Of a stretch of 64,000 nt of DNA, positions 29,827 through 58,328 are shown in pieces. Position 1 is the stretch's first letter, and every line of letters starts with the position of its first letter. The position numbers were made by a program, and so were the translations under genes. This stretch comes from Bacilli bacterium. Lineage in GTDB: Bacteria > Bacillota_I > Bacilli_A > RFN20 > CAG-826. Location of the stretch: assembly GCA_022641095.1 (NCBI GenBank), contig JALCDB010000004.1, positions 28,773-92,772 on the forward strand. The letters are read 5' to 3'. The notes under the pieces are model-generated. The model did no database searches and was not told the origin of the DNA. It saw only the letters and a program-made list of their open reading frames with translations.

Positions 29827-30165
29827 ATGCTCTACCCCGAATTTAAGCAATACAAATCGTTCTACGACAAGTCTAACCCCCTTTGCAACGCTTACCAAAG
29901 CGAAACGGGAGCCGTTTTCTACGTCGAGCCATCTTTTTATGCGGGTTTGCGCGGGTTTGAGGAAAAGCGTCCGAATGATTTTCCGGCCATAATGAAGCGA
30001 ATCGGCGAAATCGTCGAAAGCAACCGCGAAGTCGTCTTCGTAGGCGATTTTGAACACCCTTTCGTGAACAAGGATGGTTTCGTTTATCGGGAGATCGGCG
30101 ATATCGCCGATCAGTTAGGCGTTTTCGTCGAGGATAAAAACCGTCCTAGCGACTATGGGGATTAA
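29827..30165 (+). CDS. hypothetical protein (112 aa)
   Basis: The ORF has no overlap with neighbouring genes and is co-directional with ugd. No motif was recognised. Confidence 0.45.
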   Translation: MLYPEFKQYKSFYDKSNPLCNAYQSETGAVFYVEPSFYAGLRGFEEKRPNDFPAIMKRIGEIVESNREVVFVGDFEHPFVNKDGFVYREIGDIADQLGVFVEDKNRPSDYGD

Positions 30166-30166
30166 G

Positions 30167-31480
30167 ATGAAAGTCACCGTTATCGCTTTAGGCTATGTCG
30201 GACTCGCCAATGCGGTCGTTTTGTCTGAGCGCGGATTTGACGTCGTGGCCTACGACAATGACGCCGCGAAAATCGCCGAGTTGAAGAAAGGCAAAGCGCC
30301 TTTTGACGAGGCGGGTTTAAGCGTCGCTCTCTATAAGAACCGGAAGCGTATTTCTTTCACGAACGACGAGAAGGAAGCCTATACCTCAAGCAATGTTTTC
30401 TTCGTCGCGGTGGATACGCCGGCTTTGCCGGATGGGGGTTCGAATCTCACCCATCTTAACGAAGTCGTCTCCTGCGTCGAGAAATACGTTAAAGAAGAAT
30501 CGTTTCTCGTTATCCGAAGCACCGTCCCCGTGGGGACGAACGGAAAACTGTCGGCTTCCGTGAAATCCCTTTCCGGGGCTCGAATCCACATCGTTTCGAA
30601 CCCGGAGTTCTTGGCCGAAGGGCGCGCCTTGCTTGAGGAACGCTCGCCTTCGCGGATCGTCATCGGTTCGAACGAGAAGGCAAGTCGTGACTTGTTAAGG
30701 GTCCTTTACCGGAAAGCCATATCTTCCGGCGTCCCTTATTATGAGATGGATCCCGCTTCGGCCGAATTCGTCAAATACGCGAGCAATCTGTTTTTGGCTC
30801 TTAAGATTTCCTATGTGAATGAGTTGGCGCGCTTAGCCGAACCGCTCGGGGCCGATATCGGCGCGGTGACTTTGGCGATGGGCGCCGATCCGCGGATCGG
30901 CCACTCGATGACCAAAGCCGGCGTCGGTTATGGCGGGGCGTGTCTTCCTAAAGACGGCTCAGCCCTTCAGCGGGAAGCCAAAGAACTTGGCTTCCGTCTG
31001 TCGCTTGTGGAAGATGCTTCGCTCGTCAATCAGACTCAGCCTTTCTTCTTTTATCAGAAAATCGTGAAGAGACTTGGCCCCCTTTCCAACAAGAAAGTCG
31101 CGGTTCTTGGCTTATCTTTCAAGGCAGGAACCTCCGATGTCCGCCACACGGTGGCCGACTATTTCGTGAAAAGCTTGTTGAAGGACGGGGCGGAAGTCCG
31201 TTCATACGATCCGTCCGCGAAAGCCAGAAAAGCCTTCTCCGGCCTCGTTGCCGTCTCACATAAGCACATCATTGCCTCAACGCTCGAAGCAGCTCTCACG
31301 GGCGCGGACGCGATTCTGATTCTCACGGAAGACGAGGCTTTTGCCTCGTTGGACGAAAACAAACTTCTTCGTGCGATGTCGGGACGTTTCATTTTCGATG
31401 GACGCAATCTTTATGACACCAGGCACTTCCGCTATTTTGACTACGTGTCCGTCGGACGCGCTGAGCATAAGCCTCGATGA
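30167..31480 (+). CDS. ugd: UDP-glucose 6-dehydrogenase
   Basis: The Rossmann motif MKVTVIALGYVGL is present with catalytic region GYGGACLPKD. Length is typical of the UDPGDH family. Confidence 0.9.
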   Translation: MKVTVIALGYVGLANAVVLSERGFDVVAYDNDAAKIAELKKGKAPFDEAGLSVALYKNRKRISFTNDEKEAYTSSNVFFVAVDTPALPDGGSNLTHLNEVVSCVEKYVKEESFLVIRSTVPVGTNGKLSASVKSLSGARIHIVSNPEFLAEGRALLEERSPSRIVIGSNEKASRDLLRVLYRKAISSGVPYYEMDPASAEFVKYASNLFLALKISYVNELARLAEPLGADIGAVTLAMGADPRIGHSMTKAGVGYGGACLPKDGSALQREAKELGFRLSLVEDASLVNQTQPFFFYQKIVKRLGPLSNKKVAVLGLSFKAGTSDVRHTVADYFVKSLLKDGAEVRSYDPSAKARKAFSGLVAVSHKHIIASTLEAALTGADAILILTEDEAFASLDENKLLRAMSGRFIFDGRNLYDTRHFRYFDYVSVGRAEHKPR

Positions 31481-32844: not shown

Positions 32845-33243
32845 GGGGTCGTCCTGGTTTTGACGGGGAAATGACTCGGCTTTGACTGCAGTGGCGCGGT
32901 GAGCTTAAACACCAAACCAAAATAACTGATAACAGTTATGCTTATAGGAACGTTAACCACGTCTCCTATGCTTGCGCCTAATTAGGTAACCTACGGATTC
33001 CTTCCCTTCGCGGAAGGGCAGCACGTCCTCGATCCGATTCGTGTCTCTCGGGTCCTTCGGGCGTCATATCAAGACACTAAGCGGCGGTTCTTGGCTAAGG
33101 GCTTCCGACGAAAACGCGTTAGCCTCGCCATGGGGACTTGACTGTGTCTTGCCCCGTGGTCAAATTCGATGCAGTCTAAACTGTAGGCGTCATTGATGAG
33201 TCTTCTTCGGACAGGGGTTCGATTCCCCTCGACTCCACCACCA
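32845..33243 (+). ncRNA. ssrA: transfer-messenger RNA (tmRNA)
   Basis: The 5-prime end GGGGUCGUCCUGGUUUUGACGGGG and the 3-prime T-arm and acceptor GGGGUUCGAUUCCCCUCGACUCCACCA match tmRNA. An internal tag frame reads gat aac agt ... tat gct tgc gcc TAA, preceded by aaauaacu as in the Bacillus tmRNA. Confidence 0.93.
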
Positions 33244-33244
33244 A
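33225..33244 (+). repeat. attL core (cccctcgactccaccaccaa), part of the ssrA 3-prime end
   Basis: An identical 20-mer occurs at 46253-46272. Confidence 0.9.
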
Positions 33245-33319: not shown

Positions 33320-34411
33320 TCATTTTTGCTTATTAAACGACAAATCTTTAGGATCGGTGGCCCAAAAATCGGAAATGACGGTTTTCTCGTCGGGAAGGAG
33401 ATCGGCGTAATACTTTTGAGTGGTGGCTTCGGAAGCGTGGCCAAGCCATCTTGACACATAGCGGGTGGAAACGCCGTGAGAGATAAGAGCGACGGAACAG
33501 GAATCGCGGAACTCATGGTTCTTGATGGCGGGAAGCCCGGCGGCTTCCGCGTACCTCTTCCTAAGCCGGTCAACCTCGGTTTGGCCCAAAAGCCTGTGGC
33601 GATAAAACGCGGAAGGAAAAAGGAACCCGTCGCCATGGGGATATTCCTTCAAAAGGGCCTGGACCTGCGGAACGGGAGGCAAACGGCGGATTGACGAGGA
33701 CGTCTTCGGGGTGGTGATGATCTGATGGCCTTCCGAGTTTTTTGCGTTAAGGCCGCGGGAAACGGAAAGCCAGCCGCCCTTGAAGTCAGAGCCCTTCAAA
33801 GCTAGGGCCTCCGAAATCCGAAGACCGTAATAAAAGAGAACCCCGAACAAAAGGCGGTCGCGCGGGCTGGCGATCGCCGACATGAAAACACGGAACTGGC
33901 CGATGGTGTAGAAGTGATAGACGTGAGGGGCCGGAACGTCTTTCTTGAAAGCGAAAACCCTCTCATAATCAAGAATCGCGTTATAGCGCTTCAAAAATTT
34001 AACCCAATGGCGGGAAACGGAAACAGCGCGACCCATGGATTTATTGCCACACCTGTTGAGCTTCAAATTGAAAACGTCAAGGAAGTTATTGTCCAACTTA
34101 TAAACATCAACACCACTAAAAACAGGAGCAATATAGCGAAGAAAGAACTTCCGGAAACCATAAACGGTCGAACCCTTCAAAGTCTCGAAAAGAGAACCGA
34201 AATAAACCCCGTAAAGATCATCGCAAAGAATAGGCTTAGCAAAAGCCGAAGACTTGCCGGAAAGAGAAGCGACGAAAACGGGCTCAAACGAAAGCGCAGC
34301 CTTCCTAGTCAAAAAAGGGCGTTCCGAAGTCGAATAGCAGTAAAAAAGCTTTCCTTTCCAGGAGTAACGGATAAACCAACTCTTCCGAGACTTTGAATAA
34401 TAAACGGCCAT
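33320..34411 (-). CDS. int: tyrosine recombinase / integrase
   Basis: 363 aa. Box I is GLRISEALAL. The C-terminus HEFRDSCSVALISHG...WLGHAS...TQKYY carries the H-x-x-R, GH and catalytic Tyr pattern. The gene is adjacent to attL. Confidence 0.9.
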   Translation of the reverse strand: MAVYYSKSRKSWFIRYSWKGKLFYCYSTSERPFLTRKAALSFEPVFVASLSGKSSAFAKPILCDDLYGVYFGSLFETLKGSTVYGFRKFFLRYIAPVFSGVDVYKLDNNFLDVFNLKLNRCGNKSMGRAVSVSRHWVKFLKRYNAILDYERVFAFKKDVPAPHVYHFYTIGQFRVFMSAIASPRDRLLFGVLFYYGLRISEALALKGSDFKGGWLSVSRGLNAKNSEGHQIITTPKTSSSIRRLPPVPQVQALLKEYPHGDGFLFPSAFYRHRLLGQTEVDRLRKRYAEAAGLPAIKNHEFRDSCSVALISHGVSTRYVSRWLGHASEATTQKYYADLLPDEKTVISDFWATDPKDLSFNKQK

Positions 34412-34503: not shown

Positions 34504-35742
34504 TTATTTGCCTTTTCCCGTCTTGGCTATCAACTTATCTTCAATGAACCGCATGACGGCATCGACGATGCCGCGAGGGGTATCGGTCGCGAACAGAGAC
34601 TTCCCGCCCCCATCGATGCCAACCATCATAAGACTTTGGATTTTGCCTTCGACATAAAGGCCATAAATCCGAAACGGAACATCGTCAAAGCCGTTCTTGC
34701 CGAAATAAAAGGTCTCCTCGGTGAGAAGGGACAAACCGTCTTGGCCAACCTCGGCATCACGATTAAGAAGGAAGAAAACCGGATCGCCTTTGTCCGCGCC
34801 GTCGAGGATCCTCTCCTTCGAGACGGACTCGAGTTTCTTCACTAAAGACAGATCGTACCAAACCTTCCAAGCGGGAACCTTCGCGGAGGCGGATTCAACG
34901 GAACCCCTTTTCGAGACGGCCTTCCCATCCTCGCGCTCCCTGAGCTTCTTGCGGAGGAAAGCGGCGAGCTTCCCGGAAAGGAGGGAGGGGGTCTTCGCCG
35001 ACTCGTAGACGTACAGGCTTTTCTTGCCAACCCAGAAAATGCCGTGGCAGGCGAACTCCTTCTTGGCCTTGTCGAAGCAAACGTCGAAACTCACCTTGAC
35101 CAATCCGGCGTCCGAGGAGAAGGATCCGGAGACTGTCTTGGAGCCCTCGGAACCGTAATGATCCTTCGGCGTTTCGGAAAGCGCGGGCGCGGCGAGAAAC
35201 GAACCGCAAAGAAGGAAAGCCCGCCCAAGGTACTCGTCGAAGCTTTTGGACTCAGCCTTAACCTTGTCGAGAAGCTTCTGGTCCCGGATCGCCTGAACGG
35301 TCATGTCGGGCCTGTAACCATCGATGCCGTCCTTTACGGGCAAAAGCTCGACGAGCTGCGTGAAGGAGTAATCCTTGTACTTCCCGCCCCAGGAAAGCCC
35401 CTTGCCGAACCTCTCGAAGACGGAGATGAAATTCTTGGTGCTCGTGCGTTTGAAGCCCAAGACCTTCTCGGAATAGTCATAGATGTCAGCATAGCCGCAG
35501 GCGGCGAGAACCCCCTTGTCATCGCGGAGGGCGGCGAGCTCCCGGCCGATATCGACGAAGCAGGAGGCGACTTGACGAGAGGCGGAAACAAGCCGCTGCG
35601 TGTGCTCGCCCAACTTAGTGGTCATATCCAAAAGAGATCTATCAGGAGCGACGAGAGCCCGGTCAGTCAACTGACCAACGGGCCTGCTTTCGACGACGAC
35701 GGGCGAAGCGGCTTTGGCAACCGCCTTTGCAACTTTTTTCAT
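34504..35742 (-). CDS. hypothetical protein (412 aa), element-encoded
   Basis: The ATG has a good context and the gene is tightly packed behind the upstream gene. The N-terminal third loosely resembles DUF3102/KorB-like helical regions. No firm motif was found. Confidence 0.55.
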   Translation of the reverse strand: MKKVAKAVAKAASPVVVESRPVGQLTDRALVAPDRSLLDMTTKLGEHTQRLVSASRQVASCFVDIGRELAALRDDKGVLAACGYADIYDYSEKVLGFKRTSTKNFISVFERFGKGLSWGGKYKDYSFTQLVELLPVKDGIDGYRPDMTVQAIRDQKLLDKVKAESKSFDEYLGRAFLLCGSFLAAPALSETPKDHYGSEGSKTVSGSFSSDAGLVKVSFDVCFDKAKKEFACHGIFWVGKKSLYVYESAKTPSLLSGKLAAFLRKKLREREDGKAVSKRGSVESASAKVPAWKVWYDLSLVKKLESVSKERILDGADKGDPVFFLLNRDAEVGQDGLSLLTEETFYFGKNGFDDVPFRIYGLYVEGKIQSLMMVGIDGGGKSLFATDTPRGIVDAVMRFIEDKLIAKTGKGK

Positions 35743-35746
35743 TTTG

Positions 35747-36397
35747 CTATTTTCCTTTATTTGTTTTTTCCGAATCTAAAGAGACATCAACTCTAGTAAT
35801 CCTCAAATCCGCAAAACGCTTATTCGCTTCCTCATCTTTCTTAAAAAAGCCGGACCAACGGCGGTAATCCCAGGAATAGAAACGGCCGGGAAAGGAGCAA
35901 ACAAATTCGCCGGAAGCCCTGCAAAGCCCCATGCGATGATCCGCGTAAAAAAAGAACAGCCGATCACCCTTTCGAACCTGAACGACGTCCAGTCCGTCGG
36001 GCTCCTCGCCGGCCACCTCCGAATAATCGGCAAGAACCAAACCGGCCGGATCCCGGAAATCTCGATAGAAATCGGCGACGGCGACAATGACAACGAACGA
36101 TGAACGGAAAACCTTTGCGAAATAAGTTTTTCTGACGACGTCGGACGCAGAGCGAAAAAGGTCTTTCTCTCTCTCTATGTCACGCGGAGTCTTCCCAAGG
36201 GAAAAACCGGCAAAAACAATCTCCTCGTAACGGTCAAAGCCGAGATCATCAAGGTTCTCGGTGCCGGAATAGTAATCAAGCAAGACCTTTTGGGCCTCTT
36301 TGATTCCCTTATAAAAAAGAGAAACGAAGAAAGTAAAAAACAAAAACAAAAACAAAACGCAATCGAAGACCAGCTGAACGACCTCAAACACATTCAT
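35747..36397 (-). CDS. hypothetical membrane-anchored protein (216 aa)
   Basis: The N-terminal TM helix is VFDCVLFLFLFFTFFVSLF and the RBS aaggaggg is upstream. Confidence 0.55.
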   Translation of the reverse strand: MNVFEVVQLVFDCVLFLFLFFTFFVSLFYKGIKEAQKVLLDYYSGTENLDDLGFDRYEEIVFAGFSLGKTPRDIEREKDLFRSASDVVRKTYFAKVFRSSFVVIVAVADFYRDFRDPAGLVLADYSEVAGEEPDGLDVVQVRKGDRLFFFYADHRMGLCRASGEFVCSFPGRFYSWDYRRWSGFFKKDEEANKRFADLRITRVDVSLDSEKTNKGK

Positions 36398-36491
36398 AAT
36401 TTACCCTCCTTGGATAAAAACTTTTTGTTATCAAACATCAACATCGCGTCCAACAGCCTTTAACGGAGCTAACGAAACCAATCACATACCA

Positions 36492-37865
36492 TCAGTTCCC
36501 CTCCTTCCTTCCTTTGAAGGATTCCGAATCGTATTTAGCGGAACCAAGCTTCAAGGCTTGCTTCCCGAAAAGGCTCTCGACTTCGGCCGGAATATCACGG
36601 AAAACATCAAACCATCCGGAAGCGTTTTTAAGACACTCTTCCTTGCTCGAGTAAACGGGAAGACCCTTCTCTTTGCGATAGTTGTTAACAACGATAAGGT
36701 CCTTTGACCCAAAACGGGAGAAACCCGAATTAAGCAAATAAATAAAGGAAGCCTCGGCGTTTTCCGGAGAGGCAAAAGCAAAACGGGAAAGAGCTTTCCC
36801 GGCATCGCGATTCAACCATTTTGCGTTGGAGCTAACGGTGGATTCCGCGCGAACCTGGCAGATGATCTTATGGGAAGAAACGCCCTTCAGGAACCGCTCC
36901 CACGGCCTCCAGACGGGATAACGCGACAAATGAGCCCGATCCGGATTACTAGAAAGAGAACGAAACGAAACGATACCGCCAAGCAAACCGGCGGCGAAGG
37001 CCGGAAACCGGTTCTCTTTCAGAGCCGCGGAAACCTCCGGAGCGCAAGCGACGGCATACCGGTCGTGATAACGCAACTCCCAACGGGTCCACGAAGGAAT
37101 GTCAACGACACAAGCCTTGGATTCGCGTTCCGCTTTCTTGTTATAAACGTTCAGCATCACGCAGGACTTGGACCCGATGTAATAGCTGACGGACTCGCCT
37201 ATGCCCTGCTTCTCGACGAGGGGGTCCTCAAGGGTCCCGTCGCGACCGCGGGAACGCAAAGAAGAAAGATAAGAACGGGATTCGATCTTCTTGATGACAC
37301 CGGAATAGGGAACGCGACCAGAGAAATCATCAACGGCAACGTCAATACGGGTGACATGGCCGCCGAAAAGCAAAGCCGTATCTATAACCAAGGCCCATTG
37401 CAAAGCGGTTGCCTTATCAAGCTCGGATTCAGGGACCCCTTCCGAATGCATTTCCAAATACCGATCAACAAACCGCCGCTCAAACGCGCGGCAACCAGAA
37501 CCGGAGACCTCAATAATCCACGTATGAGAAGAAGACAGACTAGCATTGCGGTCACCGCCCCATATCACGCAGGTTTCCTCATCGTAAAACCTCTTAGTCG
37601 TGTAGCCGTAACGGCCCTTTTCGTCGTCCACTTCGGCCCCGAAATCGAGGCAAAGCGGACCCGCGAGGTTTTTTGCAACTTCACAATCGGGCGAAAAGTC
37701 CCCGTCAAACCTGATAGTTAGATAGTCAATTAGCGTATTGAAATGTGGAGAACTACGGGGGGTGTTACCTACCCCCCGCGCGTGTGCGCCCGCACGCTGA
37801 TCCACGGAAACGGCTTCATTAGTGGCAACGACCTCGGAGGCCCGGGCGATCCCTTTCCCGCTCAT
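36492..37865 (-). CDS. rolling-circle replication initiator / relaxase of the Rep_trans family
   Basis: 457 aa. The motifs HVTRIDVAVDDF, YYIGSKSCVMLNVYNKKAE and WTRWELRYHD match the conserved blocks of pT181 RepC, CTXphi RstA and Tn916 Orf20-type proteins. The start overlaps the upstream stop as ATGA. Confidence 0.8.
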   Translation of the reverse strand: MSGKGIARASEVVATNEAVSVDQRAGAHARGVGNTPRSSPHFNTLIDYLTIRFDGDFSPDCEVAKNLAGPLCLDFGAEVDDEKGRYGYTTKRFYDEETCVIWGGDRNASLSSSHTWIIEVSGSGCRAFERRFVDRYLEMHSEGVPESELDKATALQWALVIDTALLFGGHVTRIDVAVDDFSGRVPYSGVIKKIESRSYLSSLRSRGRDGTLEDPLVEKQGIGESVSYYIGSKSCVMLNVYNKKAERESKACVVDIPSWTRWELRYHDRYAVACAPEVSAALKENRFPAFAAGLLGGIVSFRSLSSNPDRAHLSRYPVWRPWERFLKGVSSHKIICQVRAESTVSSNAKWLNRDAGKALSRFAFASPENAEASFIYLLNSGFSRFGSKDLIVVNNYRKEKGLPVYSSKEECLKNASGWFDVFRDIPAEVESLFGKQALKLGSAKYDSESFKGRKEGN

Positions 37866-40138
37866 CGGCCAAACCTCCTTCCACCACCGACGGAGGCACG
37901 GCCCTTTGCCGAACGTGCAGGCCGCCCGGCCTTTGCACGTCCGGCTATACGGGCCTTAGCGCCCAAAACGCTGCTTGCAGAGGAAGAAAGACGGTTTGCC
38001 GACAAATCGGCCACAACGTAGCTTCCCTGGGCTTCCCATTCGGCTCTAGTGTTTTCGACACCGGAGAACTTAGGCAATTCATTAAAGCCGCAAACAGCGA
38101 GGTTTTTCCCATCGTTCAAGAATCCGCTCATGCAGTTTGACTGATAACGATCGGAATAAGCCAAGAAGTAAGGAGCGTAGAAATCAACCTCGTCACCTTC
38201 GACCAAATCGCCGGAAGACGTGCAGGAAGCGGATTTAAGGCCGATTTTGTCATAACCATAACGATTGCGAACGAAATCAGAAACGGCGGAAGCATAGAAA
38301 GACAGGCGAGAAACGAGCCATGACAGCAACGTCGAATCCTCACGGGCAAAGCGGTAATTCCGATAGAAGCGGTCGCAAAAGGCCAAAGCCTTCTCAATGA
38401 TGACCGGCTCGATCCACCAAAACGGAACCGCGTTCCTTTCGGAGATGTTCTTAGGATCAACCGTGAAAATGCTCTGGGCAACACTAACGTCAGTCAAACT
38501 CAAAGCACCGGAATACTGCATATCCCCGAAAATCTTAAAGAAATTGACATTATCAATCGAAGCGATGTGGCCACCCAATTTGATGGAATAGCCGAAAAAA
38601 TCATTTTTTGGGTTGGCCACATCGTCGGAAACCTTCAAAGAAGAATTAGAATCGCGGTTGCCGCGTTCCTTGTCCTCTTCCGTAATGACATAAACGCCAG
38701 GCCCCGCAGAGGCGTTGAAAGCGTTGTTGGGATCGACGCGCAAACCAAGACGAAGCGAATCAAACCGGATAATGTGGGAGAAAGTGGAAAAACCCAGCAT
38801 ATCCCGGTTATCACGATGGAAAATATCGTCATTCCACAAGAACAAATGGCCTTGATCCATCCTGATTTCATCAGTACGAATAGAATAGTTTGAAGAGATG
38901 TAGGTATCGTAACGCGCATAAACGTAATAAGCCTGGGCATAGCATTTCAGCGCATGGGCGAGAGTGACGATTTTGCACCCATCGTAATAAGTGACCCTTT
39001 CGCTTCCGAGGTCGTAATGATAATGACGAAACCGAAAATACCTATAGATCAGACCGGCAAAAGAGCCGGCTTGCTCGATATTGAAAATCCTTCGACGATG
39101 GCCAGGACTCCAAGAAGAATACCAAAGGATCTCATTCTCGAACGCCTGCCAAGGAAAATCCGGAAACATCCTGGAATACTTCCGCATGATCCGATAGGAA
39201 TCTTGCCTATCGTTAAGACTTTGGAAAATAGCGAACAAAGTCATGAGCTTCGTCTTGCCGGCCCTCATCTTGCCCAGGATCAAGGTGAAAACGCCCGTGC
39301 AGGCCCTTAGGACGGCCTGACAAGCCGGAATGAGCCTTCGGGTTATGAACCTGTCGGCGCGGCGGAAGCAAAGCCAACGGAACGCAAAATAGCCGAGAAT
39401 GAGAAGCAGCCAAGCAGGAAGGAAAGACAACGAGAAGAAGAAACTCGTCAGAGTGGCCAAGACGAAATCGGCCAGGGAGAGAAGATCCATCGAGGCGAAG
39501 AAATAGAAGAAAAGCCCCACGAAATCCAAAACGTAGGAATAGGCGTTAAGGCCGTACAAAAGGAACAAGACAAGAGGCAAGCCCCAAAACGAGCGGAAAA
39601 GCCAGCCAACATAGCCAGAAACGCGTTTCAGGGCCTTCCCGACGAAGCCAAGGCCGGCCTTGAAACGGACGAGCTCTCGCGAACTAGCGAACCAAGGCAA
39701 GCCGGATTCCTCATAGTAAGAGCCAAGCAAAAGCTTCCCGATGAGCAAGGCGACGACCAAAAGCATAAGAAGCCTAACGACAAAATAGAGAAAAGAGGAT
39801 CCGCTAACCAAAAACCCCAAGAATTGCCCCTTGGTAAACAAAAGCCGGAAATAAACCAGAACGGAGGAAAAAAACGCCTTGGGATCGGGCGAGGCGATCC
39901 ACGACGGCAGCTCGCCCATGGAGGTTACATAGGAAAGCAAATAAGGAGAAGACGGTTTCCGGCCAAAGAACAGGGTAACGAAAGAGAAAAGCCTCTCAAT
40001 GAGAACAATGAAAGAAGAAAGCAGTCTAGGAAAAGCCCACGGTTCTACGAACACGACGAAAGCGAACGCGCCGCAGAAAATAAGAACGGCCAAGAAGTGC
40101 GGCCAAAGGACTTGAAGATAAGTGATAAACCTTTTCAT
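37862..40138 (-). CDS. polytopic membrane protein with cytoplasmic P-loop NTPase domain (Zot/pI-like or FtsK/TcpA-like)
   Basis: 758 aa. The N-terminal roughly 270 aa hold about 7 hydrophobic helices. Walker A is LILGKMRAGKT, a candidate Walker B is VYVITEED, and the C-terminal tail is Arg/Gly/Ala-rich. Confidence 0.65.
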   Translation of the reverse strand: MKRFITYLQVLWPHFLAVLIFCGAFAFVVFVEPWAFPRLLSSFIVLIERLFSFVTLFFGRKPSSPYLLSYVTSMGELPSWIASPDPKAFFSSVLVYFRLLFTKGQFLGFLVSGSSFLYFVVRLLMLLVVALLIGKLLLGSYYEESGLPWFASSRELVRFKAGLGFVGKALKRVSGYVGWLFRSFWGLPLVLFLLYGLNAYSYVLDFVGLFFYFFASMDLLSLADFVLATLTSFFFSLSFLPAWLLLILGYFAFRWLCFRRADRFITRRLIPACQAVLRACTGVFTLILGKMRAGKTKLMTLFAIFQSLNDRQDSYRIMRKYSRMFPDFPWQAFENEILWYSSWSPGHRRRIFNIEQAGSFAGLIYRYFRFRHYHYDLGSERVTYYDGCKIVTLAHALKCYAQAYYVYARYDTYISSNYSIRTDEIRMDQGHLFLWNDDIFHRDNRDMLGFSTFSHIIRFDSLRLGLRVDPNNAFNASAGPGVYVITEEDKERGNRDSNSSLKVSDDVANPKNDFFGYSIKLGGHIASIDNVNFFKIFGDMQYSGALSLTDVSVAQSIFTVDPKNISERNAVPFWWIEPVIIEKALAFCDRFYRNYRFAREDSTLLSWLVSRLSFYASAVSDFVRNRYGYDKIGLKSASCTSSGDLVEGDEVDFYAPYFLAYSDRYQSNCMSGFLNDGKNLAVCGFNELPKFSGVENTRAEWEAQGSYVVADLSANRLSSSASSVLGAKARIAGRAKAGRPARSAKGRASVGGGRRFGR

Positions 40139-40509
40139 CGTTCGACCCCTCTCTTGAACAAGTAGGAAAAGTCATAAAGGGAATAGAAATCGCCGTTGCC
40201 GAGAACGCGGATAACGAAATCCGTCTCGCCGTCGCAGTCCAAAGCTCCGGAGGAATACTCATAGGAGAAATCGAAGGAGACCTTCCCGGAAACGAGCCGG
40301 CCAGAAGAACCGTCGCGAATGAGGACGTAATGATCGGAAGCCGAAACATAAACGCCGGGCAAAGCATCGGCGGAGACGCCCGCGCCTTTTTCCAGAGACG
40401 CGCAGGCGGAAACGCAATAGACGGCGAAAACGGTTGTCAGGGCAACCGTCAAGACCTTCCAAAACCGGAAGGATTTGTTCGGATCGGAACTTCGGCCGAA
40501 ATGAAGCAT
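40135..40509 (-). CDS. small lipoprotein (124 aa)
   Basis: The signal and lipobox read TVFAVYCVSAC, and the RBS aggagg lies 6 nt upstream. An ATGA overlap links it to the NTPase gene. Confidence 0.65.
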   Translation of the reverse strand: MLHFGRSSDPNKSFRFWKVLTVALTTVFAVYCVSACASLEKGAGVSADALPGVYVSASDHYVLIRDGSSGRLVSGKVSFDFSYEYSSGALDCDGETDFVIRVLGNGDFYSLYDFSYLFKRGVER

Positions 40510-40527
40510 GAGACACCTCCTTTAGTG

Positions 40528-42210
40528 TCAGCGTTTGCGGATCTTCTTAGTTTTGGCCTCCAATTTCCTAATTCGCCGGCCGTTCCTCAACGAAGAAAGG
40601 CCGAACGCAAAGCCAAAAGCTTTGTAAAGCAGACAGCAAACGCCGACGAAGCCAAGAACGCCGCCGGCGATCTTCAAAGCGGCCAAGACCTTATCCCATG
40701 CGGAAGCCAGGTTATCGACGACCCCGTTGACGTGAATAGTGTAGGGATGCGTGATGTGGGCCACGGTCGTGTCAACGGGCGTGTCGACGCAAGAAAAAGT
40801 GATATCACCCCCGAGGAGATCGTTGTGGAACGTGAGAGTCAGAAGCCGGACCGAGTCTATCTGGTGGCATGAGGTGTTGGTGTAGTAGCCTTCGGCGCAG
40901 AAGCCGCCGCCGACGACATGGCGCTCATAAGGCCTATCGTTGAGAAGGATCGCGTAGTCGTAGGATCCGGAACCTTCGGAATCGGAGTAGTCGCGGTATT
41001 CCCGGCAAAGATCGACGAAGGGCTTAACGCGCGCCCCATTGGTCTCCTTGAAGGACTCCTCGGCGCTCAAGGCGGCCAAGGAGGCGTCGTCGAGCCTCTG
41101 GATCGAATCGAAGGCGTAAACGAGATCGTCGTGGCCGAGAAGCCATTTGTTGACGGGGTCGCCGCCGTCGGGGGCGGTAACGACGGTAACGCCGGAAGAC
41201 ACAACATCATAAACAGTTGGCTTGGAAGCGACCGAGTACGATTCATAGGTAATGCCGGAAACCGCTTTGGCGGGATAAGAAGGGAAGGGCCCGGAAAACT
41301 CGCGCCACTTATCGCCCAGATAATCAAGATAATCCGAAGGATCGCCATAAAGGCCGCCGTAAACATGGCCTTCATTCAGGTTCCGCCAATCGCAAAACAA
41401 AGGGCGGTGCTCGCTGGCGACATAAGAGGAAACGAAATATGAAACGCGAACGCTTTTGAGCAAATCAAGGCCGGTGATAGCGGAAGAAGAATCGCCCAGC
41501 TTGAAAAAACACCAGAAGTTCTCCAAAGCTGAGGCCGGGAAGTTCCCGGACCGGGGAACGAGAACGCAATCCAAAACCGCTAATTTCCTTTTTATCACCA
41601 CGTAATCGTCCGAGAAGCTTCGGGCGATTGGGTCAACGCCATCGGCCACGTCCTGCCAGCAGATCTCGAAATCGGAGCAAGCGCGAAAGAAAGGGACGTA
41701 GAAAGAAGAAAGGCCGCCCAACAGGGAAACCGCGACGCGATGACAGGAGCCGACGACGTACGGATAAGCGTTCCTGATAACCGACTTCCGGAAGCACCCG
41801 AAATCGGCCGGGGCGGTGCTGATGGCGAAGTTGGAGAAGGAGTCGTGATACGTGCCGTCGTCTGAAACGGCGGAGACGAAACTCAAAGAGGCGAAGCCAA
41901 AAAGGTCGGAATCGCCGGAAACGCTGGAATAATAATAGAAATAGAGGTCGCCTTTGCAAGGAACGATCTGGAAGAACCGGAAATCCGAATATGGGTCCGC
42001 CTCGGAGCCGGAACGGACCGAGGAACGAGGAAGGAGCCATGCCAGAGTCTGGCCCTCACAACCGGCTTCCTTGGCCTTCTCATCGAACATGGTCTGAAGA
42101 TCCACGGCGGCGTTGGAGGTCTCGATCTCGATATTGGGAACCGAGGCAAGGCAAGGAACCGACAATGAAGCGATAAGAGCAACGGTGGCAGCGAAAAGTG
42201 ACAAACTCAT
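40528..42210 (-). CDS. secreted protein with C-terminal membrane anchor (560 aa)
   Basis: Starting at ATG 42210 gives the signal peptide MSLSLFAATVALIASLSVPCLA. The C-terminal TM is GVLGFVGVCCLLYKAFGFAFGL, followed by a basic tail. The Arg-rich upstream ORF extension overlaps the preceding gene. Confidence 0.65.
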   Translation of the reverse strand: MSLSLFAATVALIASLSVPCLASVPNIEIETSNAAVDLQTMFDEKAKEAGCEGQTLAWLLPRSSVRSGSEADPYSDFRFFQIVPCKGDLYFYYYSSVSGDSDLFGFASLSFVSAVSDDGTYHDSFSNFAISTAPADFGCFRKSVIRNAYPYVVGSCHRVAVSLLGGLSSFYVPFFRACSDFEICWQDVADGVDPIARSFSDDYVVIKRKLAVLDCVLVPRSGNFPASALENFWCFFKLGDSSSAITGLDLLKSVRVSYFVSSYVASEHRPLFCDWRNLNEGHVYGGLYGDPSDYLDYLGDKWREFSGPFPSYPAKAVSGITYESYSVASKPTVYDVVSSGVTVVTAPDGGDPVNKWLLGHDDLVYAFDSIQRLDDASLAALSAEESFKETNGARVKPFVDLCREYRDYSDSEGSGSYDYAILLNDRPYERHVVGGGFCAEGYYTNTSCHQIDSVRLLTLTFHNDLLGGDITFSCVDTPVDTTVAHITHPYTIHVNGVVDNLASAWDKVLAALKIAGGVLGFVGVCCLLYKAFGFAFGLSSLRNGRRIRKLEAKTKKIRKR

Positions 42211-42695
42211 AACTGACCTCCCACGACGTAGCAAGGCTGATAAGTCGAATCGGAGGACGGGTCGAACCCATAGGGGGCCTCGCCGTCTTGCATAGCGGCC
42301 GAGACGAACCAAACGCCGGCCTTCGAAATAGAAACCGGGGAACTGACCACAAGGCCACCCAAGGCGGAAGTCGTGGCGGTCAAGGAGTTCTGCGGATCCC
42401 CGAGCCAAGCCCCGAAGGCGAGATCGCCGACCCCATCCCCGAAGGAGGACCAAAAAGCGAGATCGAGGAAACGGGCCGACTGGTCCTGACCGTCAAGGGC
42501 GACCAAATCCTCTGACGAGAAAGAGGCCGAGACCGCCGAAGCGGAGCCGGCCTTGTAAGTCAGCTCAAGGACGACCGGAAACCCGTCAACGACGGCCGGG
42601 ACGCCGATAAGCAACTTAGACGGGTCAACCGACTTAACGGACGCGGAACAGGAGCACAAAGCCAGACAGGCAAGGACGACAAGTCTCTTTTTCAT
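42207..42695 (-). CDS. lipoprotein (162 aa)
   Basis: Starting at ATG 42695, the sequence MKKRLVVLACLALCSC carries a lipobox, and the RBS gggagg is upstream. An ATGA overlap links it to the downstream gene. Confidence 0.65.
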   Translation of the reverse strand: MKKRLVVLACLALCSCSASVKSVDPSKLLIGVPAVVDGFPVVLELTYKAGSASAVSASFSSEDLVALDGQDQSARFLDLAFWSSFGDGVGDLAFGAWLGDPQNSLTATTSALGGLVVSSPVSISKAGVWFVSAAMQDGEAPYGFDPSSDSTYQPCYVVGGQL

Positions 42696-42704
42696 AAAGC
42701 CTCC

Positions 42705-42763
42705 CTCGTTCCTTCTGAAACAGGAAGAACGAGCGAAGCCCCTCCCCAAGGGCGGGGGAGGGG
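42705..42763 (-). other. two tandem hairpins between cistrons
   Basis: One stem is cccctcccc/ggggagggg (9 bp, 42739-42763). The other is ctcgttccttc/gaagaacgag (42705-42733). Neither is followed by a U-tract. Confidence 0.5.
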
Positions 42764-42775
42764 CGGGCACAGGGA

Positions 42776-43756
42776 TCAGCTGAACTGGACGGAAGAGGAG
42801 TCGGCGGAAAGCGAGGTCGGCGGGACGTAGGCCCCGACGAGGAAAGAGTAGGAGGCCTCCTCGAAGACGACGGACTCGGGGGAGGCGGCGGAGGAATACC
42901 CGCCCAGCTCCTTGGCGTTCCCGTACCAAATAAGGACGGAATGGCCGTCGGAGGCGTCCAGGCGCCTATCGAAGGAGGTCCCGTCCGGGCCCTTCGTGGC
43001 CGAGGGGAGGGCGGACGGATCGCTCGCGGTGACCTCGAAGATCAAAGTCAGATAGAGAGGGCGCGAGTCGTCGAACGACCAAGTGACGGTCTTGGTCGGG
43101 AAGTCCCAGGCGAGGCAGCAGAACGGGGACGACTGGGATTGGAAATCGGAGCCGGCGAAATTGACGAAGGAGAGGAGATCCGGAGAAGAAAGATCGCCAG
43201 TTCCGTACGAAGAGTAAAGATCGTCGGCGAGGGTCATCCTGACGAGGCTGAGCTTGGTGACGAAGTTGTAGACGGTGACCGGGATGGTGACGACGTCGGA
43301 GGCTAGGGCCTCAGGATGGGCGGTGACGTTCACGGTCCCGCTGAACTCGCCAGCGGCCAAAGTCAGAGTGACGGCCGAGCCGGAAAGGACCCTGCCGGCG
43401 CTGACGGCGATTTTCGCGGGATCGGAAGACTCAACCAGGACGTACTTGTCGGTGGCGTTCGCCGGCTCGATGGTGAAGACGACGGTCTTAGTGGCGCCGA
43501 CCTGAACGGATTTCTGAATACCTCCGGCGCCGAAGACGGTTCCGCCGTAGACCTTGGCGGAGAGAGAGCCGGACGAAAGAGTAGTCGTCGGAGCGTCGCC
43601 GTCGGTAGAACCGGAAGTTGCCGGGATAATCTTCCCGATCTCCGAATCGACCCAATCGCGAACCGTCTTGTTAAGCGAGTAAACGGCGGCGGCGGCCCCG
43701 GCGATAAGGGCCACGGAAGCAAAGATGGAGAGCCAAACACGACCACGTTTCTTCAT
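42776..43756 (-). CDS. N-terminally anchored surface protein with bacterial Ig-like (Big_2-type) region
   Basis: 326 aa. The TM helix is WLSIFASVALIAGAAAAVY. The segment VQVGATKTVVFTIEPANATDKYVLVESSDPAKIAVS..VTLT..GTVNVTA resembles a Big_2 domain. The RBS aggagg is upstream. Confidence 0.6.
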   Translation of the reverse strand: MKKRGRVWLSIFASVALIAGAAAAVYSLNKTVRDWVDSEIGKIIPATSGSTDGDAPTTTLSSGSLSAKVYGGTVFGAGGIQKSVQVGATKTVVFTIEPANATDKYVLVESSDPAKIAVSAGRVLSGSAVTLTLAAGEFSGTVNVTAHPEALASDVVTIPVTVYNFVTKLSLVRMTLADDLYSSYGTGDLSSPDLLSFVNFAGSDFQSQSSPFCCLAWDFPTKTVTWSFDDSRPLYLTLIFEVTASDPSALPSATKGPDGTSFDRRLDASDGHSVLIWYGNAKELGGYSSAASPESVVFEEASYSFLVGAYVPPTSLSADSSSVQFS

Positions 43757-43858
43757 ATAAAATACCTCCTAGGTATCAGGGCATGAACGCCCTTGGGAAG
43801 CCCCCCAAGGAAAGGGGGCCTCGCAAGGGAGCCTTGGTCTCCCAAGGCCCCGAACGGA

Positions 43859-44404
43859 TCAGACAGCGGGTCCGACGGGCGAATCGGATTCGGCTTTCAG
43901 AGACTCGTCGAACGAATCGTCGGCGGCGGTCCCATCAAACGGGATCGGCGCGTATTCCTTCCCAATAAGGCCCTTGGAAAGGCGCAGAAGAAGAAGCTGA
44001 ACGAACGGATCGGAGGGTTGGAGCCGATAGGAGAGGATAAGAAGCCTGTCGAAGTAGAGCTCGACCATGTAGGAAGACCGTTCCTTGCCTTGATCGTTTT
44101 GGCCCCAAACAAACTTCGTGATCCGAACCTTCGCCTTGGCGCGGAACTGCTCGGGAACGAACTTCCCGTTTTGGATAGTCACGAGAAGGCCGTACTGGTT
44201 ACCAGTCAATACGATGTGATACTTGGTGATGAAGTCGAAAATGACGTCGGCGGAATAGTTGTCGTTGACGGTCTTGGTGCGCCTGTCTGTGCGGCTCGAC
44301 TTCGTGATCAGAACGTCAATAGTTGGCAACTTGGCAAGCGACGTAGTATCGAGAGAACGCAGACCGACGAACTTAGCAGCCTCGGATTTTTCTTGGTTTT
44401 CCAT
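43859..44404 (-). CDS. hypothetical protein (181 aa) with acidic C-terminal tail, possible ssDNA-binding protein
   Basis: ATG 44404 is preferred over GTG 44440. The C-terminus is PIPFDGTAADDSFDESLKAESDS. No firm motif was found. Confidence 0.45.
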   Translation of the reverse strand: MENQEKSEAAKFVGLRSLDTTSLAKLPTIDVLITKSSRTDRRTKTVNDNYSADVIFDFITKYHIVLTGNQYGLLVTIQNGKFVPEQFRAKAKVRITKFVWGQNDQGKERSSYMVELYFDRLLILSYRLQPSDPFVQLLLLRLSKGLIGKEYAPIPFDGTAADDSFDESLKAESDSPVGPAV

Positions 44405-45633: not shown

Positions 45634-45903
45634 GTGAAATGGGAACGTTTAGCCGAATTAAGAAAAGAAAAAGGATTAACCCAAGAAGAGCTGGGCAATA
45701 CCTTTAACGTAACCAGACACACGGTGACAATGTGGGAAACCGGAAACACGGAACCGGATTACGCGACACTGATCAAACTTGCCGATTTTTTAGAAGTGTC
45801 GACTGACTATCTTCTAGGCCACCAAGCAAAAATCTCTTTAACCAAAGAGCAAAAAGAAACTCTAAAAAAAGCAGAAGAGATAATCAATGAAATAACCAAA
45901 TAG
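45634..45903 (+). CDS. XRE-family HTH regulator (cI-like repressor candidate)
   Basis: 89 aa. The HTH LRKEKGLTQEELGNTFNVTRHTVTMWETG is present. The gene is divergent from the long operon. The start is GTG. Confidence 0.8.
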   Translation: MKWERLAELRKEKGLTQEELGNTFNVTRHTVTMWETGNTEPDYATLIKLADFLEVSTDYLLGHQAKISLTKEQKETLKKAEEIINEITK

Positions 45904-45914
45904 AAAGGAAAACA

Positions 45915-46136
45915 ATGATCATCGATTACATTTTATCAGCCTCAGAATCAACAAACGACAGCATGGTAGGGCACATCACCACCCCGGAAACGACTCACAC
46001 ACCAGGGCTAATAGACGTGCCTTGGGCAATACCAGTTTTCGTAGGAATGGCGATAACGATAGTTGTTTTACTTGTCATCATCATAGTCAGGAAACAAAAC
46101 CAAAACTTTTTGAAAAAAGAAAAAAAAGACAAATAA
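45915..46136 (+). CDS. single-pass membrane protein (73 aa) with basic C-terminal tail
   Basis: The TM helix is WAIPVFVGMAITIVVLLVIIIV and the tail is RKQNQNFLKKEKKDK. The RBS aaaggaaa is upstream and the gene is co-directional with the XRE gene. Confidence 0.5.
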   Translation: MIIDYILSASESTNDSMVGHITTPETTHTPGLIDVPWAIPVFVGMAITIVVLLVIIIVRKQNQNFLKKEKKDK

Positions 46137-46252: not shown

Positions 46253-46272
46253 CCCCCTCGACTCCACCACCA
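46253..46272 (+). repeat. attR core (displaced copy of the ssrA 3-prime end)
   Basis: The 20-mer is identical to 33225-33244. Confidence 0.9.
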
Positions 46273-46280
46273 AGCAAAAA

Positions 46281-46303: not shown

Positions 46304-46467
46304 TATTTTTCAATACCACAGTTTTGCCACATGTTTATCCGTGTTTTCCCGATTTTTGGCCATTGATCTTGGATTGGAAATCAAAGGTTTTTTGAAGCGG
46401 TTTCTCTTTTTTGTCTTTCCTTGTCATATCGTTTTCCATCGTTCAAACGGTTTTCTTGTTCCTTGCG

Positions 46468-46851
46468 ATGAGCGATGCCAAGAAAGGCGGACGCAACGAA
46501 ATACGCGATGGGGTTATCGCCGTTTCTTTCTCGCTTGGGGCCACGCTTCTGTCGGGTTTTGCCAACATCGTGTTTTGCTCAGCCTCCAGCAGAATAACCG
46601 ACCATGTCATCTCGCTTTGGATATCAAGCGCGTTAGGCGCTCTTTATATTCTCTATTTCGTTAAGTTGAAAGACATGGATTCGGCCGTTGACATAGATAT
46701 CCCGACCAGCTCGATCAAAATCGATCTAGACAAAGCCGACGCTCTTAAGAAATACAAAGATTTGCTTGATGCCGGCGCAATAAGCCAAGACGAATACGAC
46801 AAAAAGAAAAAGCGATTTATTGAAATGGGTTATTTTTTCGTTTTCCGATAG
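46468..46851 (+). CDS. membrane protein with C-terminal SHOCT-like domain
   Basis: Two TM helices are followed by DKADALKKYKDLLDAGAISQDEYDKKKKRFIE, the SHOCT pattern. ATG 46468 is preferred over TTG 46411. Confidence 0.55.
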   Translation: MSDAKKGGRNEIRDGVIAVSFSLGATLLSGFANIVFCSASSRITDHVISLWISSALGALYILYFVKLKDMDSAVDIDIPTSSIKIDLDKADALKKYKDLLDAGAISQDEYDKKKKRFIEMGYFFVFR

Positions 46852-57350: not shown

Positions 57351-58262
57351 CTATTTTTTCGTGAATTTGCTGATGTCAAGCCACGCACCCTGCTCAAAAT
57401 CGGCCCGTTCATCGTCAAAGATGAGCGTGCCCTTCGCGGGAGTGAAGGTGAGTTCGCCGAAATAGATTTTCCCTTTGATGTCATATAAATCGACGCGGAC
57501 GAAGGGGAATGGTTTCGCGAGGTCCTCCGCCATCTTGACCATTTGATTCCAGTTTTTGGGTTTTTCTATGGATTTTTCGCTCGTGAGCCAACCATTGAAT
57601 TGGCTGCCTGGGAAGGGCGTCCAATCGGAATAGAAATTGGTGTAGCGGATTTCTTTTCCGCGGCCAGTCACGACATAAAGGTTCTTGGCCACTCCGTTGA
57701 AGCAGTGGATTTTGTATTCGGTTGGCAAGCGGGAAAGGCTTCCGATGTACTCCTCGATTATTATTTGCGGCTTTATGGGAGAGTAGTGGCGTTCAAGGGT
57801 CATTTCGCCATAGTTCGTGGCAAGCCACTTGTCGAATTTCCGTTTGGCTTTTTCTCTGTCAAAGGCCTTTTTGTCCTTCACGATCATATTGAACCCCGAC
57901 GCGTGGGTGCATTTCAGAACAAAGGAATCGGGCAACTTTGCGAAGTCGATGTCATCGAACCTGTCGTAGACGCCATAAGAGTTGATGAGTTTGTCCTCGT
58001 ATCCGGTTTCCTTGACGTATGCGCGGGCCCCGACCCGTCCGGCTGCCCGAACGACCAAGGGGTCATTCGGATAGACGTAGAGACGGAGATATTGAAGTTT
58101 CTCCGTGTAACGCACCGGATTCTTAAGATTCAATTTCCGATGGGTGATGTATCTATATTGGAGTTTGACGTAAAGGGTGGGCGACAGGGTCTTGACGATG
58201 GGTCGAAAAGGGCTCACGAGAGCCCGCTTCAATTTGTTTTCCTTGAGGCGTGGATTAAGCAT
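57351..58262 (-). CDS. ATP-grasp fold amidoligase (TupA-like)
   Basis: 303 aa from ATG 58262. The segments NPVRYTEKLQYLRLY, FVLKCTHASG and VRVDLYDIKGKIYFGELTF are typical of TupA-like ATP-grasp proteins. The longer ORF overlaps the divergent GT gene. Confidence 0.65.
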   Translation of the reverse strand: MLNPRLKENKLKRALVSPFRPIVKTLSPTLYVKLQYRYITHRKLNLKNPVRYTEKLQYLRLYVYPNDPLVVRAAGRVGARAYVKETGYEDKLINSYGVYDRFDDIDFAKLPDSFVLKCTHASGFNMIVKDKKAFDREKAKRKFDKWLATNYGEMTLERHYSPIKPQIIIEEYIGSLSRLPTEYKIHCFNGVAKNLYVVTGRGKEIRYTNFYSDWTPFPGSQFNGWLTSEKSIEKPKNWNQMVKMAEDLAKPFPFVRVDLYDIKGKIYFGELTFTPAKGTLIFDDERADFEQGAWLDISKFTKK

Positions 58263-58328
58263 TTCGACAAGAATTATTATAACTGATAGTAAAAGAAAAA
58301 TGTTTTCGCGTGTGCAATAATACAAAAG

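Follow-up and report, generated by a model that had tools for sequence, protein, structure and literature searches.

Analysis of a 64,000-nucleotide stretch of the genome of a Bacilli bacterium (assembly GCA_022641095.1, contig JALCDB010000004.1, positions 28,773 to 92,772 of the forward strand; hereafter the window) revealed that four consecutive genes for exported or membrane-anchored proteins, named here P1 to P4, belong to a mobile element integrated at the 3′ end of the transfer-messenger RNA (tmRNA) gene ssrA, and not to the host. With a likelihood that we place just short of even, these proteins would form the particle-surface module of a new temperate, non-lytic virus with a single-stranded DNA (ssDNA) genome and membrane-assembled particles, more similar to plasmavirus L2, mycoplasma virus L172 and the pleolipoviruses than to a filament. 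Within this virion-surface reading, a particle specifically of the vesicle type is a reasonable, if doubtful, proposition. The initial annotation of the four genes had offered two explanations, namely adsorption and minor-coat proteins of a filamentous virion, or a mating or adhesion apparatus of a conjugative element; the envelope of a pleomorphic, budding-type virus resembling L2, L172 or the pleolipoviruses, which that annotation did not contain, fits at least as well.

The four genes occupy positions 40135-43756 of the window, directly upstream, in transcription order, of the gene for a membrane NTPase (lengths in amino acids, aa):

42776-43756, minus strand: P1, 326 aa, N-terminally anchored protein with an immunoglobulin (Ig)-like domain

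42207-42695, minus strand: P2, 162-aa lipoprotein with lipobox LCSC (Cys16), ATGA-coupled to P3

40528-42210, minus strand: P3, type-I membrane protein of 560 aa and candidate for the spike or adsorption role

40135-40509, minus strand: P4, 124-aa small N-terminally anchored membrane protein

Topologies were established from hydropathy, motif searches and conservation, and a Shine-Dalgarno-like sequence precedes each of the four open reading frames (ORFs). P1 has a single hydrophobic segment, at its N-terminus (residues 5-29), and an Ig-like region (residues 81-161) that matched Pfam Big_2 below threshold (E 0.022, 15 bits versus a cut-off of 22.8) and PHROG 215, "structural protein with Ig domain", clearly (2.8e-9). 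Identity to its close relatives is 55-56%, whereas P2, P3, P4, the NTPase and the replication initiator (Rep) reach 70-83%, and P1 is, judged by these identities, the most divergent core protein. The N-terminus of P2 reads MKKRLVVLACLALCSC; its second cysteine (Cys16, LCSC) aligns with the canonical LASC lipobox of the related locus L004 and is retained across the close clade, while distant relatives carry a plain transmembrane (TM) anchor in its place. P3 combines a signal-peptide-like N-terminus with a Cys-rich ectodomain, a C-terminal TM segment (approximately residues 507-539) and a 20-residue tail containing 10 Lys or Arg residues. Its frame stays open for 243 nt 5′ of the ATG, overlapping P2 (a TTG start at 42453 would give 641 aa, 40528-42453); the ATG at 42210 is the likely start, because the signal peptide begins there and the homologs measure 562-566 aa. 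Close homologs of P3 numbered only three among 5.8 billion proteins, all in syntenic elements; a 12-sequence P3 alignment used as query recovered the same four proteins, and tblastn of P3 against phages and plasmids gave no match. P4 consists of a basic N-terminus followed by a TM segment containing VSAC, the cysteine of which is not conserved (VSAG in L004, no Cys in L009-L012), and is therefore better termed a small N-anchored membrane protein than a lipoprotein.

ATGA overlaps couple P2 to P3, P4 to the NTPase gene and the latter to the Rep gene, and no LPXTG motif occurs in P1-P4. Searches with P2, P3 and P4 against Pfam, NCBIfam, PHROG and PDB sequences returned no informative match, and none of the four proteins matched solute-binding or other housekeeping lipoprotein families in Pfam, NCBIfam or PDB. 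The initial annotation thus described the block correctly in most respects: four consecutive exported proteins upstream of the NTPase, a Big_2-like region in P1, a lipoprotein P2, the topology of filamentous-phage pIII in P3 (seen by hydropathy), the ATGA overlaps, the absence of LPXTG and the lack of recognisable virion or secretion-system homologs. Its proposal of a second lipoprotein, P4 (CVSAC), was not supported by conservation of the cysteine, and the host solute-binding or metabolic lipoprotein families that it had named as the contrary case were not encountered.

Clustering of the ORFs of 83 related loci (designated by L numbers) demonstrated that membrane proteins, N-anchored ones and one with signal peptide and C-terminal TM, are followed by the NTPase in the same order in at least 50 of the 83, an arrangement that is therefore not due to chance. 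The genes 5′ of the NTPase gene regularly encode N-anchored proteins of two sizes, about 360 aa (one or two proteins, some of them Big_2-like) and about 197 aa (one protein), together with a ~480-aa protein that has a signal peptide, a C-terminal TM and a basic tail; a single-TM protein of 50-75 aa sometimes joins them. The C-terminal 165 columns of P3 are homologous to the ~480-aa protein of the distant clade (hhalign 95%, E 2.7e-8), and its N-terminal two-thirds vary across the family, with large insertions; this variation and the divergence of P1 are as expected of host-recognition proteins. Homologs of a further membrane protein of the element, of 216 aa, sit between P2 and P3 in L007, L008 and L093, so that the module comprises five membrane proteins, of which the fifth is relocated in the window element. 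Synteny of the membrane block persists while NTPase identity falls to 25%, and the neighbouring modules are exchanged. In the distant clade, a 345-aa HUH protein of Pfam PF23343 REP_ORF2-G2P (6e-11), a Rep family of plectroviruses and inoviruses, replaces Rep_trans 3′ of the NTPase gene; in L095-L097 a DDE (rve) gene follows the Rep gene where the window clade has its tyrosine integrase (L095:8967-11448); and distant relatives carry LexA-like repressors. One of L095-L097 additionally has a Y1 transposase in place of the tyrosine integrase, and the gene sets of these three loci therefore represent one morphogenesis core combined with different integration chemistries. What remains constant throughout the family is therefore the NTPase together with the membrane-protein block, the modules for replication and for integration having been exchanged.

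This conservation bears on the possibility that P1-P4 are cargo, that is, lysogenic-conversion or accessory surface proteins (adhesins, exclusion factors) of an integrative rolling-circle plasmid, with no role in transmission. Such a role would agree with the lack of homologs of known function, with the fast evolution of P1 and with the frequency of Ig-like and lipoprotein features among host surface proteins. Cargo genes normally vary, however, whereas this block remains syntenic across the whole divergence of the NTPase; it is tied by overlaps to the NTPase and rep genes within a single operon, and P1-P4 and the NTPase together account for roughly half of the 13 kb, the element offering no further candidates for transmission genes. 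We regard the cargo explanation as very improbable.

The borders of the element are defined by two copies of a 20-nt direct repeat, 13,029 bp apart, and P1-P4 lie inside this island together with the following features:

32845..33240, plus strand: tmRNA gene (ssrA), the integration target, which remains full length (ARAGORN; Rfam RF00023, 108.5 bits, model positions 1-374 of 374)

33225..33244: attL core, with CCCCTCGACTCCACCACCAA as the 20-nt direct repeat, located at the 3′ end of tmRNA (repeat search and direct reading)

33320..34411, minus strand: tyrosine integrase, 363 aa (Pfam Phage_integrase, 1.6e-17)

34504..35742, minus strand: 412-aa cytoplasmic protein (PHROG 15077, function unknown, 3e-13; homologs in L004, L045 and L028)

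35747..36397, minus strand: 216-aa N-terminally anchored membrane protein (TM at residues 1-33)

36492..37865, minus strand: rolling-circle replication initiator, ATGA-coupled to the NTPase gene (Pfam Rep_trans 6.7e-24 and Rol_Rep_N 3.4e-5; PHROG 453, replication initiation, 1.3e-20)

37862..40138, minus strand: orphan membrane NTPase, 758 aa (Walker A and B motifs; no Pfam match)

43859..44404, minus strand: cytoplasmic protein of 181 aa, encoded just upstream of the membrane genes and conserved in all window-clade relatives down to L009-L012

44564..45491, minus strand: four small ORFs (101, 77, 78 and 44 aa) heading the long operon (called as genes on the identical contigs L001 and L002; no Pfam match)

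45634..45903, plus strand: divergent XRE/CI-type repressor-like gene (Pfam HTH_3 1.6e-15; Phage_CI_repr 6e-4)

45915..46136, plus strand: 73-aa single-TM protein with acidic N-terminus and basic C-terminus

46254..46273: attR core, where the 20-nt repeat recurs; a diverged version of the tmRNA terminator hairpin follows it (repeat search)

All genes of the island are thus on the minus strand except the regulator and the 73-aa protein, in the order integrase, 412-aa protein, 216-aa protein, Rep, NTPase, P4, P3, P2, P1, 181-aa protein and the four small ORFs. The initial annotation's view of a dedicated surface module was borne out in this setting, the module being coupled to the NTPase and the rolling-circle initiator within an attachment site (att)-bounded mobile element. 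Logan contig L002 (13,069 bp), from another sample and run, matches the window at 100% identity and stops exactly within the two repeats, and therefore reflects a branch of the assembly graph at the att sites. Closed circles were found among the relatives. ENA contig k141_209541 (12,814 bp, 141-nt terminal overlap) and Joint Genome Institute (JGI) contig Ga0183100_1001347 (12,692 bp, 19-nt overlap), designated L092 and L093, are independent assemblies that are 100% identical and differently permuted, and give a circle of 12,673 bp; L008, with a 36-nt terminal overlap, gives one of 12,511 bp. The junction of the circular forms carries the reverse complement of ...GCTCCACCA, a tRNA/tmRNA-like 3′ end. 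With integrated copies in the window and in L004 (on an 834-kb contig) in addition to these circles, this type of element is therefore both integrated and episomal.

The gene set is that of a temperate virus, with integrase, XRE/CI-like regulator and Rep_trans initiator, and no capsid, terminase, portal, tail, lysis, type IV secretion system (T4SS) or relaxase family was detected in a scan of all element ORFs of at least 73 aa. The 181-aa protein matched no family in Pfam, NCBIfam or PHROG and is, from its gene position only, a candidate DNA-binding protein or nucleoprotein. The 73-aa ORF, with one strong TM helix and a Lys-rich C-terminus, has a charge layout like that of an inovirus major coat protein and, at 40%, a lower GC content than the remainder of the element; its conservation extends no further than the closest relatives (L008 and L093), and it may therefore instead encode an exclusion protein. 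A scan for promoters and terminators yielded counts at chance level, and megablast of the whole element against phages gave no match.

The orphan NTPase is composed of a polytopic helical N-terminal domain of about 280 aa (six or so helices) followed by a P-loop domain with Walker A GKMRAGKT (residues 289-296) and Walker B VYVITEE, after which stands an invariant KERGN; the mean confidence (pLDDT) of its AlphaFold2 model is 70. Neither the full protein, nor the NTPase domain alone, nor six family members matched anything in Pfam at E<=10. The family nonetheless is large, comprising 1,236 clusters (50% identity; E<=1e-3) among 1.84 billion protein representatives, nearly all 700-760 aa long, and 222 loci in GTDB species representatives, its hosts being mostly gut Bacillota. 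Among the GTDB loci, the closest relatives (37-40%) are from Bacilli metagenome-assembled genomes (MAGs), including Ca. Enteromonas, and the remainder are mostly from Clostridia and Christensenellaceae, with a few from Anaeroplasmataceae and Coproplasma. A single match, to an unannotated 57-kb "Bacteriophage sp." record, was obtained by tblastn against the INPHARED phages, and a literature search, which was not exhaustive, found no paper describing the family. Several copies of NTPase elements frequently occur within a single MAG, often on short contigs, with three each in MGBC157066 (L029, L044 and L046) and Ca. Gallimonas merdae (L026, L043 and L051), which suggests polylysogeny or active proliferation.

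The succession of a type-I membrane protein, one or more small membrane proteins, a P-loop NTPase and, further on, a rolling-circle Rep is found in pleolipovirus HRPV-1, in part in L2, and in the filamentous Ff phages. The likeness to L2 (Plasmaviridae) begins with the genome, which is circular, temperate and equipped with an integrase in both cases, with about 12 kb in L2 (PMC12662186) and about 13 kb here, and tRNA genes are the insertion sites of Acholeplasma proviruses related to L2 (PMC12662186), which parallels the tmRNA-end site of the element. One-strand, overlapping and coupled ORFs make up all genes of L2 and all but two of the element. ORF13 and ORF14 of L2 are envelope proteins with signal peptide and C-terminal anchor, as in P3, the former with Ig-like domains, and the order ORF13/14, small TM proteins ORF1/2, P-loop protein ORF3 with hydrophobic N-terminus and integrase resembles that of the element. 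In a Foldseek comparison of the NTPase model with BFVD, L2 ORF3 was the second-best viral match (E 0.035, probability 0.97). Unlike these layouts, the sequences have nothing detectable in common: tblastn gave no match to L2, and the NTPase-family hidden Markov model and the hhalign comparisons of P3, P4 and the NTPase with L2 ORFs stayed at or below 1% probability. L2 ORF3 has 312 aa versus 758 in the NTPase and, unlike the latter, is Zot-like in profile comparison. Replication also differs, since L2, which packages double-stranded DNA (dsDNA), relies on host enzymes for bidirectional replication from DnaA-box origins (PMC12662186); it has no Rep, whereas a rolling-circle initiator is encoded by the element (in which no search for DnaA boxes was made).

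As a separate observation, L2 ORF3 (L089:2278-3216), with Walker A ALPGGGKS and Walker B LILDE, aligned with a 7-sequence Zot/pI alignment over 126 columns (hhalign 74%, E 2.7e-5) and had no Pfam Zot match. According to the ICTV profile, the integrase is the sole protein that plasmaviruses have in common with other viruses; the similarity may represent an overlooked link between the morphogenesis ATPases of plasmaviruses and inoviruses.

Mycoplasma virus L172 is enveloped, pleomorphic and non-lytic, has a circular ssDNA genome of about 14 kb, infects a Mollicute and was never sequenced (PMC13375369). The element resembles it in genome size, presumed ssDNA replication and envelope-type protein set, a likeness to be read as a lead only since L172 has no sequence, and the nearest hosts of the element are Mollicutes-like Bacilli MAGs. 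In HRPV-1 (Pleolipoviridae), VP3 (two TM segments), VP4 (signal peptide and C-terminal TM, 518 aa), ORF5-7 (TM), the VP8 ATPase and a rolling-circle Rep form a layout similar to that of the element. Pleolipoviruses have a stable structural core and exchangeable, non-orthologous Reps, include some integrated proviruses, and have ssDNA or dsDNA genomes (PMC10599561); the pattern of a constant core with swapped Reps is common to them and the NTPase-element family. Unlike this layout, the sequences are again unrelated, with hhalign values of 0.1% for P3 versus VP4 and for the NTPase versus VP8 (VP3 was left out), and no relevant match in PHROG, which covers viruses of bacteria and archaea. VP8 is a soluble ATPase of 343 aa, whereas the NTPase carries its membrane domain, and pleolipovirus hosts are archaeal only, whereas relatives of the element are found in Bacillota MAGs and the window flanks are bacterial.

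The same gene order, read against filamentous phages, gives an alternative that we hold to be unlikely, an atypical inovirus- or plectrovirus-like phage in which P3 would be pIII, P4 pVI and the NTPase a divergent pI-type export ATPase; its polytopic N-domain would replace the secretin or channel, and ssDNA would be extruded as a filament across membrane and wall, the coat being unrecognised or formed by a larger anchored protein. Inoviridae and Plectroviridae include temperate, integrase-bearing members that are non-lytic, some of which integrate at tRNA or tmRNA sites. The pIII topology of P3 and the ensuing small membrane protein and NTPase correspond to gIII, gVI and gI of Ff, Rep stands directly after the NTPase, an order shared with gut inoviruses, for instance bajarodino virus 74 (Zot followed by Rep), and both Rep types of the family, Rep_trans and REP_ORF2-G2P, are those of filamentous phages. 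The coding strand is T-rich in the window clade, and most family members occur in Clostridia; thin filaments are, to our knowledge, the only known non-lytic exit from walled Gram-positive hosts. However, the two hallmark proteins of such phages, a Zot/pI-type ATPase and a major coat protein, could not be recognised in the element. Besides the negative Pfam result, hhalign of the NTPase domain against the 7-sequence Zot/pI alignment gave 2.3%, over 16 P-loop columns only, which is no better than host controls (ABC 7.5%, FtsH 2.5%), and no Zot- or pI-named protein was among the top 50 BFVD matches; the domain order is moreover reversed relative to pI (membrane domain, then ATPase). Hydropathy analysis, applied to element ORFs in the range 25-130 aa and to those in the range 28-120 aa from L004, L007, L008, L009, L011 and L012, revealed no conserved small hydrophobic coat-like ORF (30-120 aa), the 73-aa ORF lying in the regulatory module and being absent from most relatives. 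The membrane proteins upstream of P3 have 326 and 162 aa, against 30-80 aa in inoviruses, and a genome of 12.5-13 kb is about twice the size of the gut inoviruses compared (5.9-10 kb). A vesicle-type particle is preferred here over a filament because neither a coat protein nor a Zot ATPase was found. Of the filamentous-virion proposal in the initial annotation, the pIII topology of P3 stands, and the proposal as a whole is weakened.

The coupling of the NTPase to a Rep_trans gene raises the second of the earlier proposals, a minimal integrative conjugative or mobilisable element in which the Rep_trans protein would act as a MOBT-like relaxase, the NTPase as coupling protein or translocase, and P1-P4 as adhesins or pore, with DNA transferred by contact and no particle formed; Tn916 Orf21-Orf20 and Streptomyces TraB would be the models. 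A membrane NTPase, a Rep_trans protein and a tyrosine integrase form the layout of the transfer modules of integrative conjugative elements (ICEs) and integrative mobilisable elements (IMEs) in Firmicutes, and the element agrees with it in having a membrane P-loop NTPase gene directly upstream of, and coupled to, a gene of the Rep_trans family, in its tyrosine integrase and in its site-specific insertion. The Ig-like surface proteins could be adhesins, and viral catalogues contain almost none of the family. MOBT relaxases have their origin in Rep_trans and are described with a helix-turn-helix domain at the place of Rol_Rep_N (PMC11389934). The Rep of the element did match NCBIfam MobT, but weakly (4.6e-8, 32 bits versus a cut-off of 600), and its N-terminal domain is Rol_Rep_N, as in an initiator. 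Nor did any protein of the element give an FtsK_SpoIIIE, TraG/VirD4, VirB4, VirB6 or cell-wall hydrolase signal; neither FtsK nor TrwB was among the structural matches of the NTPase in PDB, and its homologs numbered 0 in the 72,556 plasmids of PLSDB. The partner of the NTPase in the distant clade is a phage-type G2P Rep, and what stays invariant in the family is the membrane block, not a relaxase. Contact transfer is accordingly weakened as an explanation, and we judge it improbable.

Base composition sets the element apart from its host. At third codon positions of the main coding strand, A amounts to 3-11% in the element versus 13-16% in host genes, and the two opposite-strand genes exhibit the mirrored bias. 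The depletion of A spans window positions 36000-44000 and the NTPase genes of L004, L007 and L008, with a third-position AT skew of -0.5 to -0.7. For the NTPase gene this skew is -0.56 to -0.72 in the window clade, versus a host-like family median of -0.12, and most distant family members lack the bias. Strand-specific mutation of an ssDNA or rolling-circle replicon would produce such a bias; the depletion could reflect ssDNA deamination in the window clade only, or the codon usage of an unsampled former host.

Under the preferred reading of a membrane-assembled ssDNA virus, the element, integrated in the 3′ end of ssrA via its tyrosine integrase, would excise to a circle, which would replicate by the rolling-circle mode through Rep_trans. 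DNA, probably single-stranded, would then be handed to the membrane NTPase, whose gene is coupled to rep and whose polytopic domain may form a DNA conduit. The particle would be assembled at, and released through, a cytoplasmic membrane loaded with P1-P4 and the 216-aa protein, and the DNA would exit wrapped in, or attached to, membrane bearing P1-P4. P3 would be the spike or adsorption protein, with a variable distal part, a conserved membrane-proximal part with its anchor, and a basic tail contacting the packaged DNA; P1 would serve as an accessory Ig-like adhesin, and the lipoprotein P2 and the small anchored P4 as minor membrane components. A broader proposal, of a large unrecognised Bacillota lineage of enveloped ssDNA viruses that would provide a sequence counterpart of L172 and a bacterial analogue of the pleolipoviruses, with P3 as a new class of spike or fusion protein and the NTPase as a new motor for DNA packaging or export, is put forward tentatively and appears rather unlikely at present.

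What the sequences show is the island borders, the circles among relatives, the topologies of the proteins, the synteny of the block and the exchange of the replication module; the existence of a particle, the form of the packaged DNA and the role of every protein are inferred. Several observations weigh against the reading as a membrane-assembled virus. Most of the family resides in Clostridia and Christensenellales MAGs, the hosts of which are expected to have cell walls, and we know of no budding enveloped virus from walled bacteria; that most family hosts probably have walls is the main difficulty for a vesicle-type particle. Only two loci of the NTPase family were found in the 2.9 million contigs of IMG/VR. 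The NTPase model had no significant Foldseek match in PDB (best E of about 1, the top ones being B204 of Sulfolobus turreted icosahedral virus (STIV), Vps4 and HerA), and its match to L2 ORF3 is borderline (TM-score 0.43 by target length, root-mean-square deviation 23 Å, no sequence-profile support). The structure of P3 predicted from four sequences was unusable (pLDDT 34) and leaves a fusion or receptor-binding role unsupported, and the composition bias, being confined to the window clade, is therefore weak support for a single-stranded genome.

Outside the island, the window contains housekeeping genes and a polysaccharide cluster only, with bacterial Mfd, TilS, FtsH and DnaB among the products. 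Three glycosyltransferases, a TupA-like ATP-grasp protein and a UDP-glucose dehydrogenase (57351-61707 and 30155-31480) constitute a surface-polysaccharide cluster, which could be the source of the receptor of the element. A 146-aa SHOCT-domain membrane protein is encoded immediately outside attR (46411-46851, plus strand), as a host gene or a remnant of an earlier insertion. The tmRNA tag peptide given by ARAGORN, DNSYAYRNVNHVSYACA, ends in YACA, where tags usually have an ALAA-type end, pointing to an unusual host lineage or a mis-set reading frame. In L004, a reverse-transcriptase gene (RVT_1, 364 aa) lies just beyond the integrase end of the related element, with a trio of small ORFs and the first part of an ORF of 1,045 aa (L004:18992-21701); these may be a retron, a diversity-generating retroelement or a defence locus beside the attachment site.

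The known non-tailed bacterial viruses extruded through membranes are the filamentous phages and a single sequenced plasmavirus. Judging from its genes, the element appears to be of the same kind as these capsid-less viruses, with no morphogenesis protein homologous to theirs, and there is a real chance that it represents a new virus lineage. Its family, with more than 1,200 protein clusters and 222 GTDB loci, has the layout of such viruses and none of their hallmark proteins, and is essentially missing from IMG/VR, PHROGs, PLSDB, Pfam and NCBIfam. If particles are formed, a substantial chronic-infection virome of gut Firmicutes would have been overlooked, a sequence handle for enveloped ssDNA phages of the L172 type would be at hand, and two new protein machines, the spike and the membrane NTPase, would be open to study. 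Should the enveloped-virus lineage prove true, it would be widespread in human and animal gut bacteria and invisible to current virus-detection pipelines; should the element instead be transferred by contact, it would constitute a minimal conjugation apparatus that needs no T4SS. Either outcome would be new biology, and the circular genomes of 12.5-13 kb are experimentally tractable.

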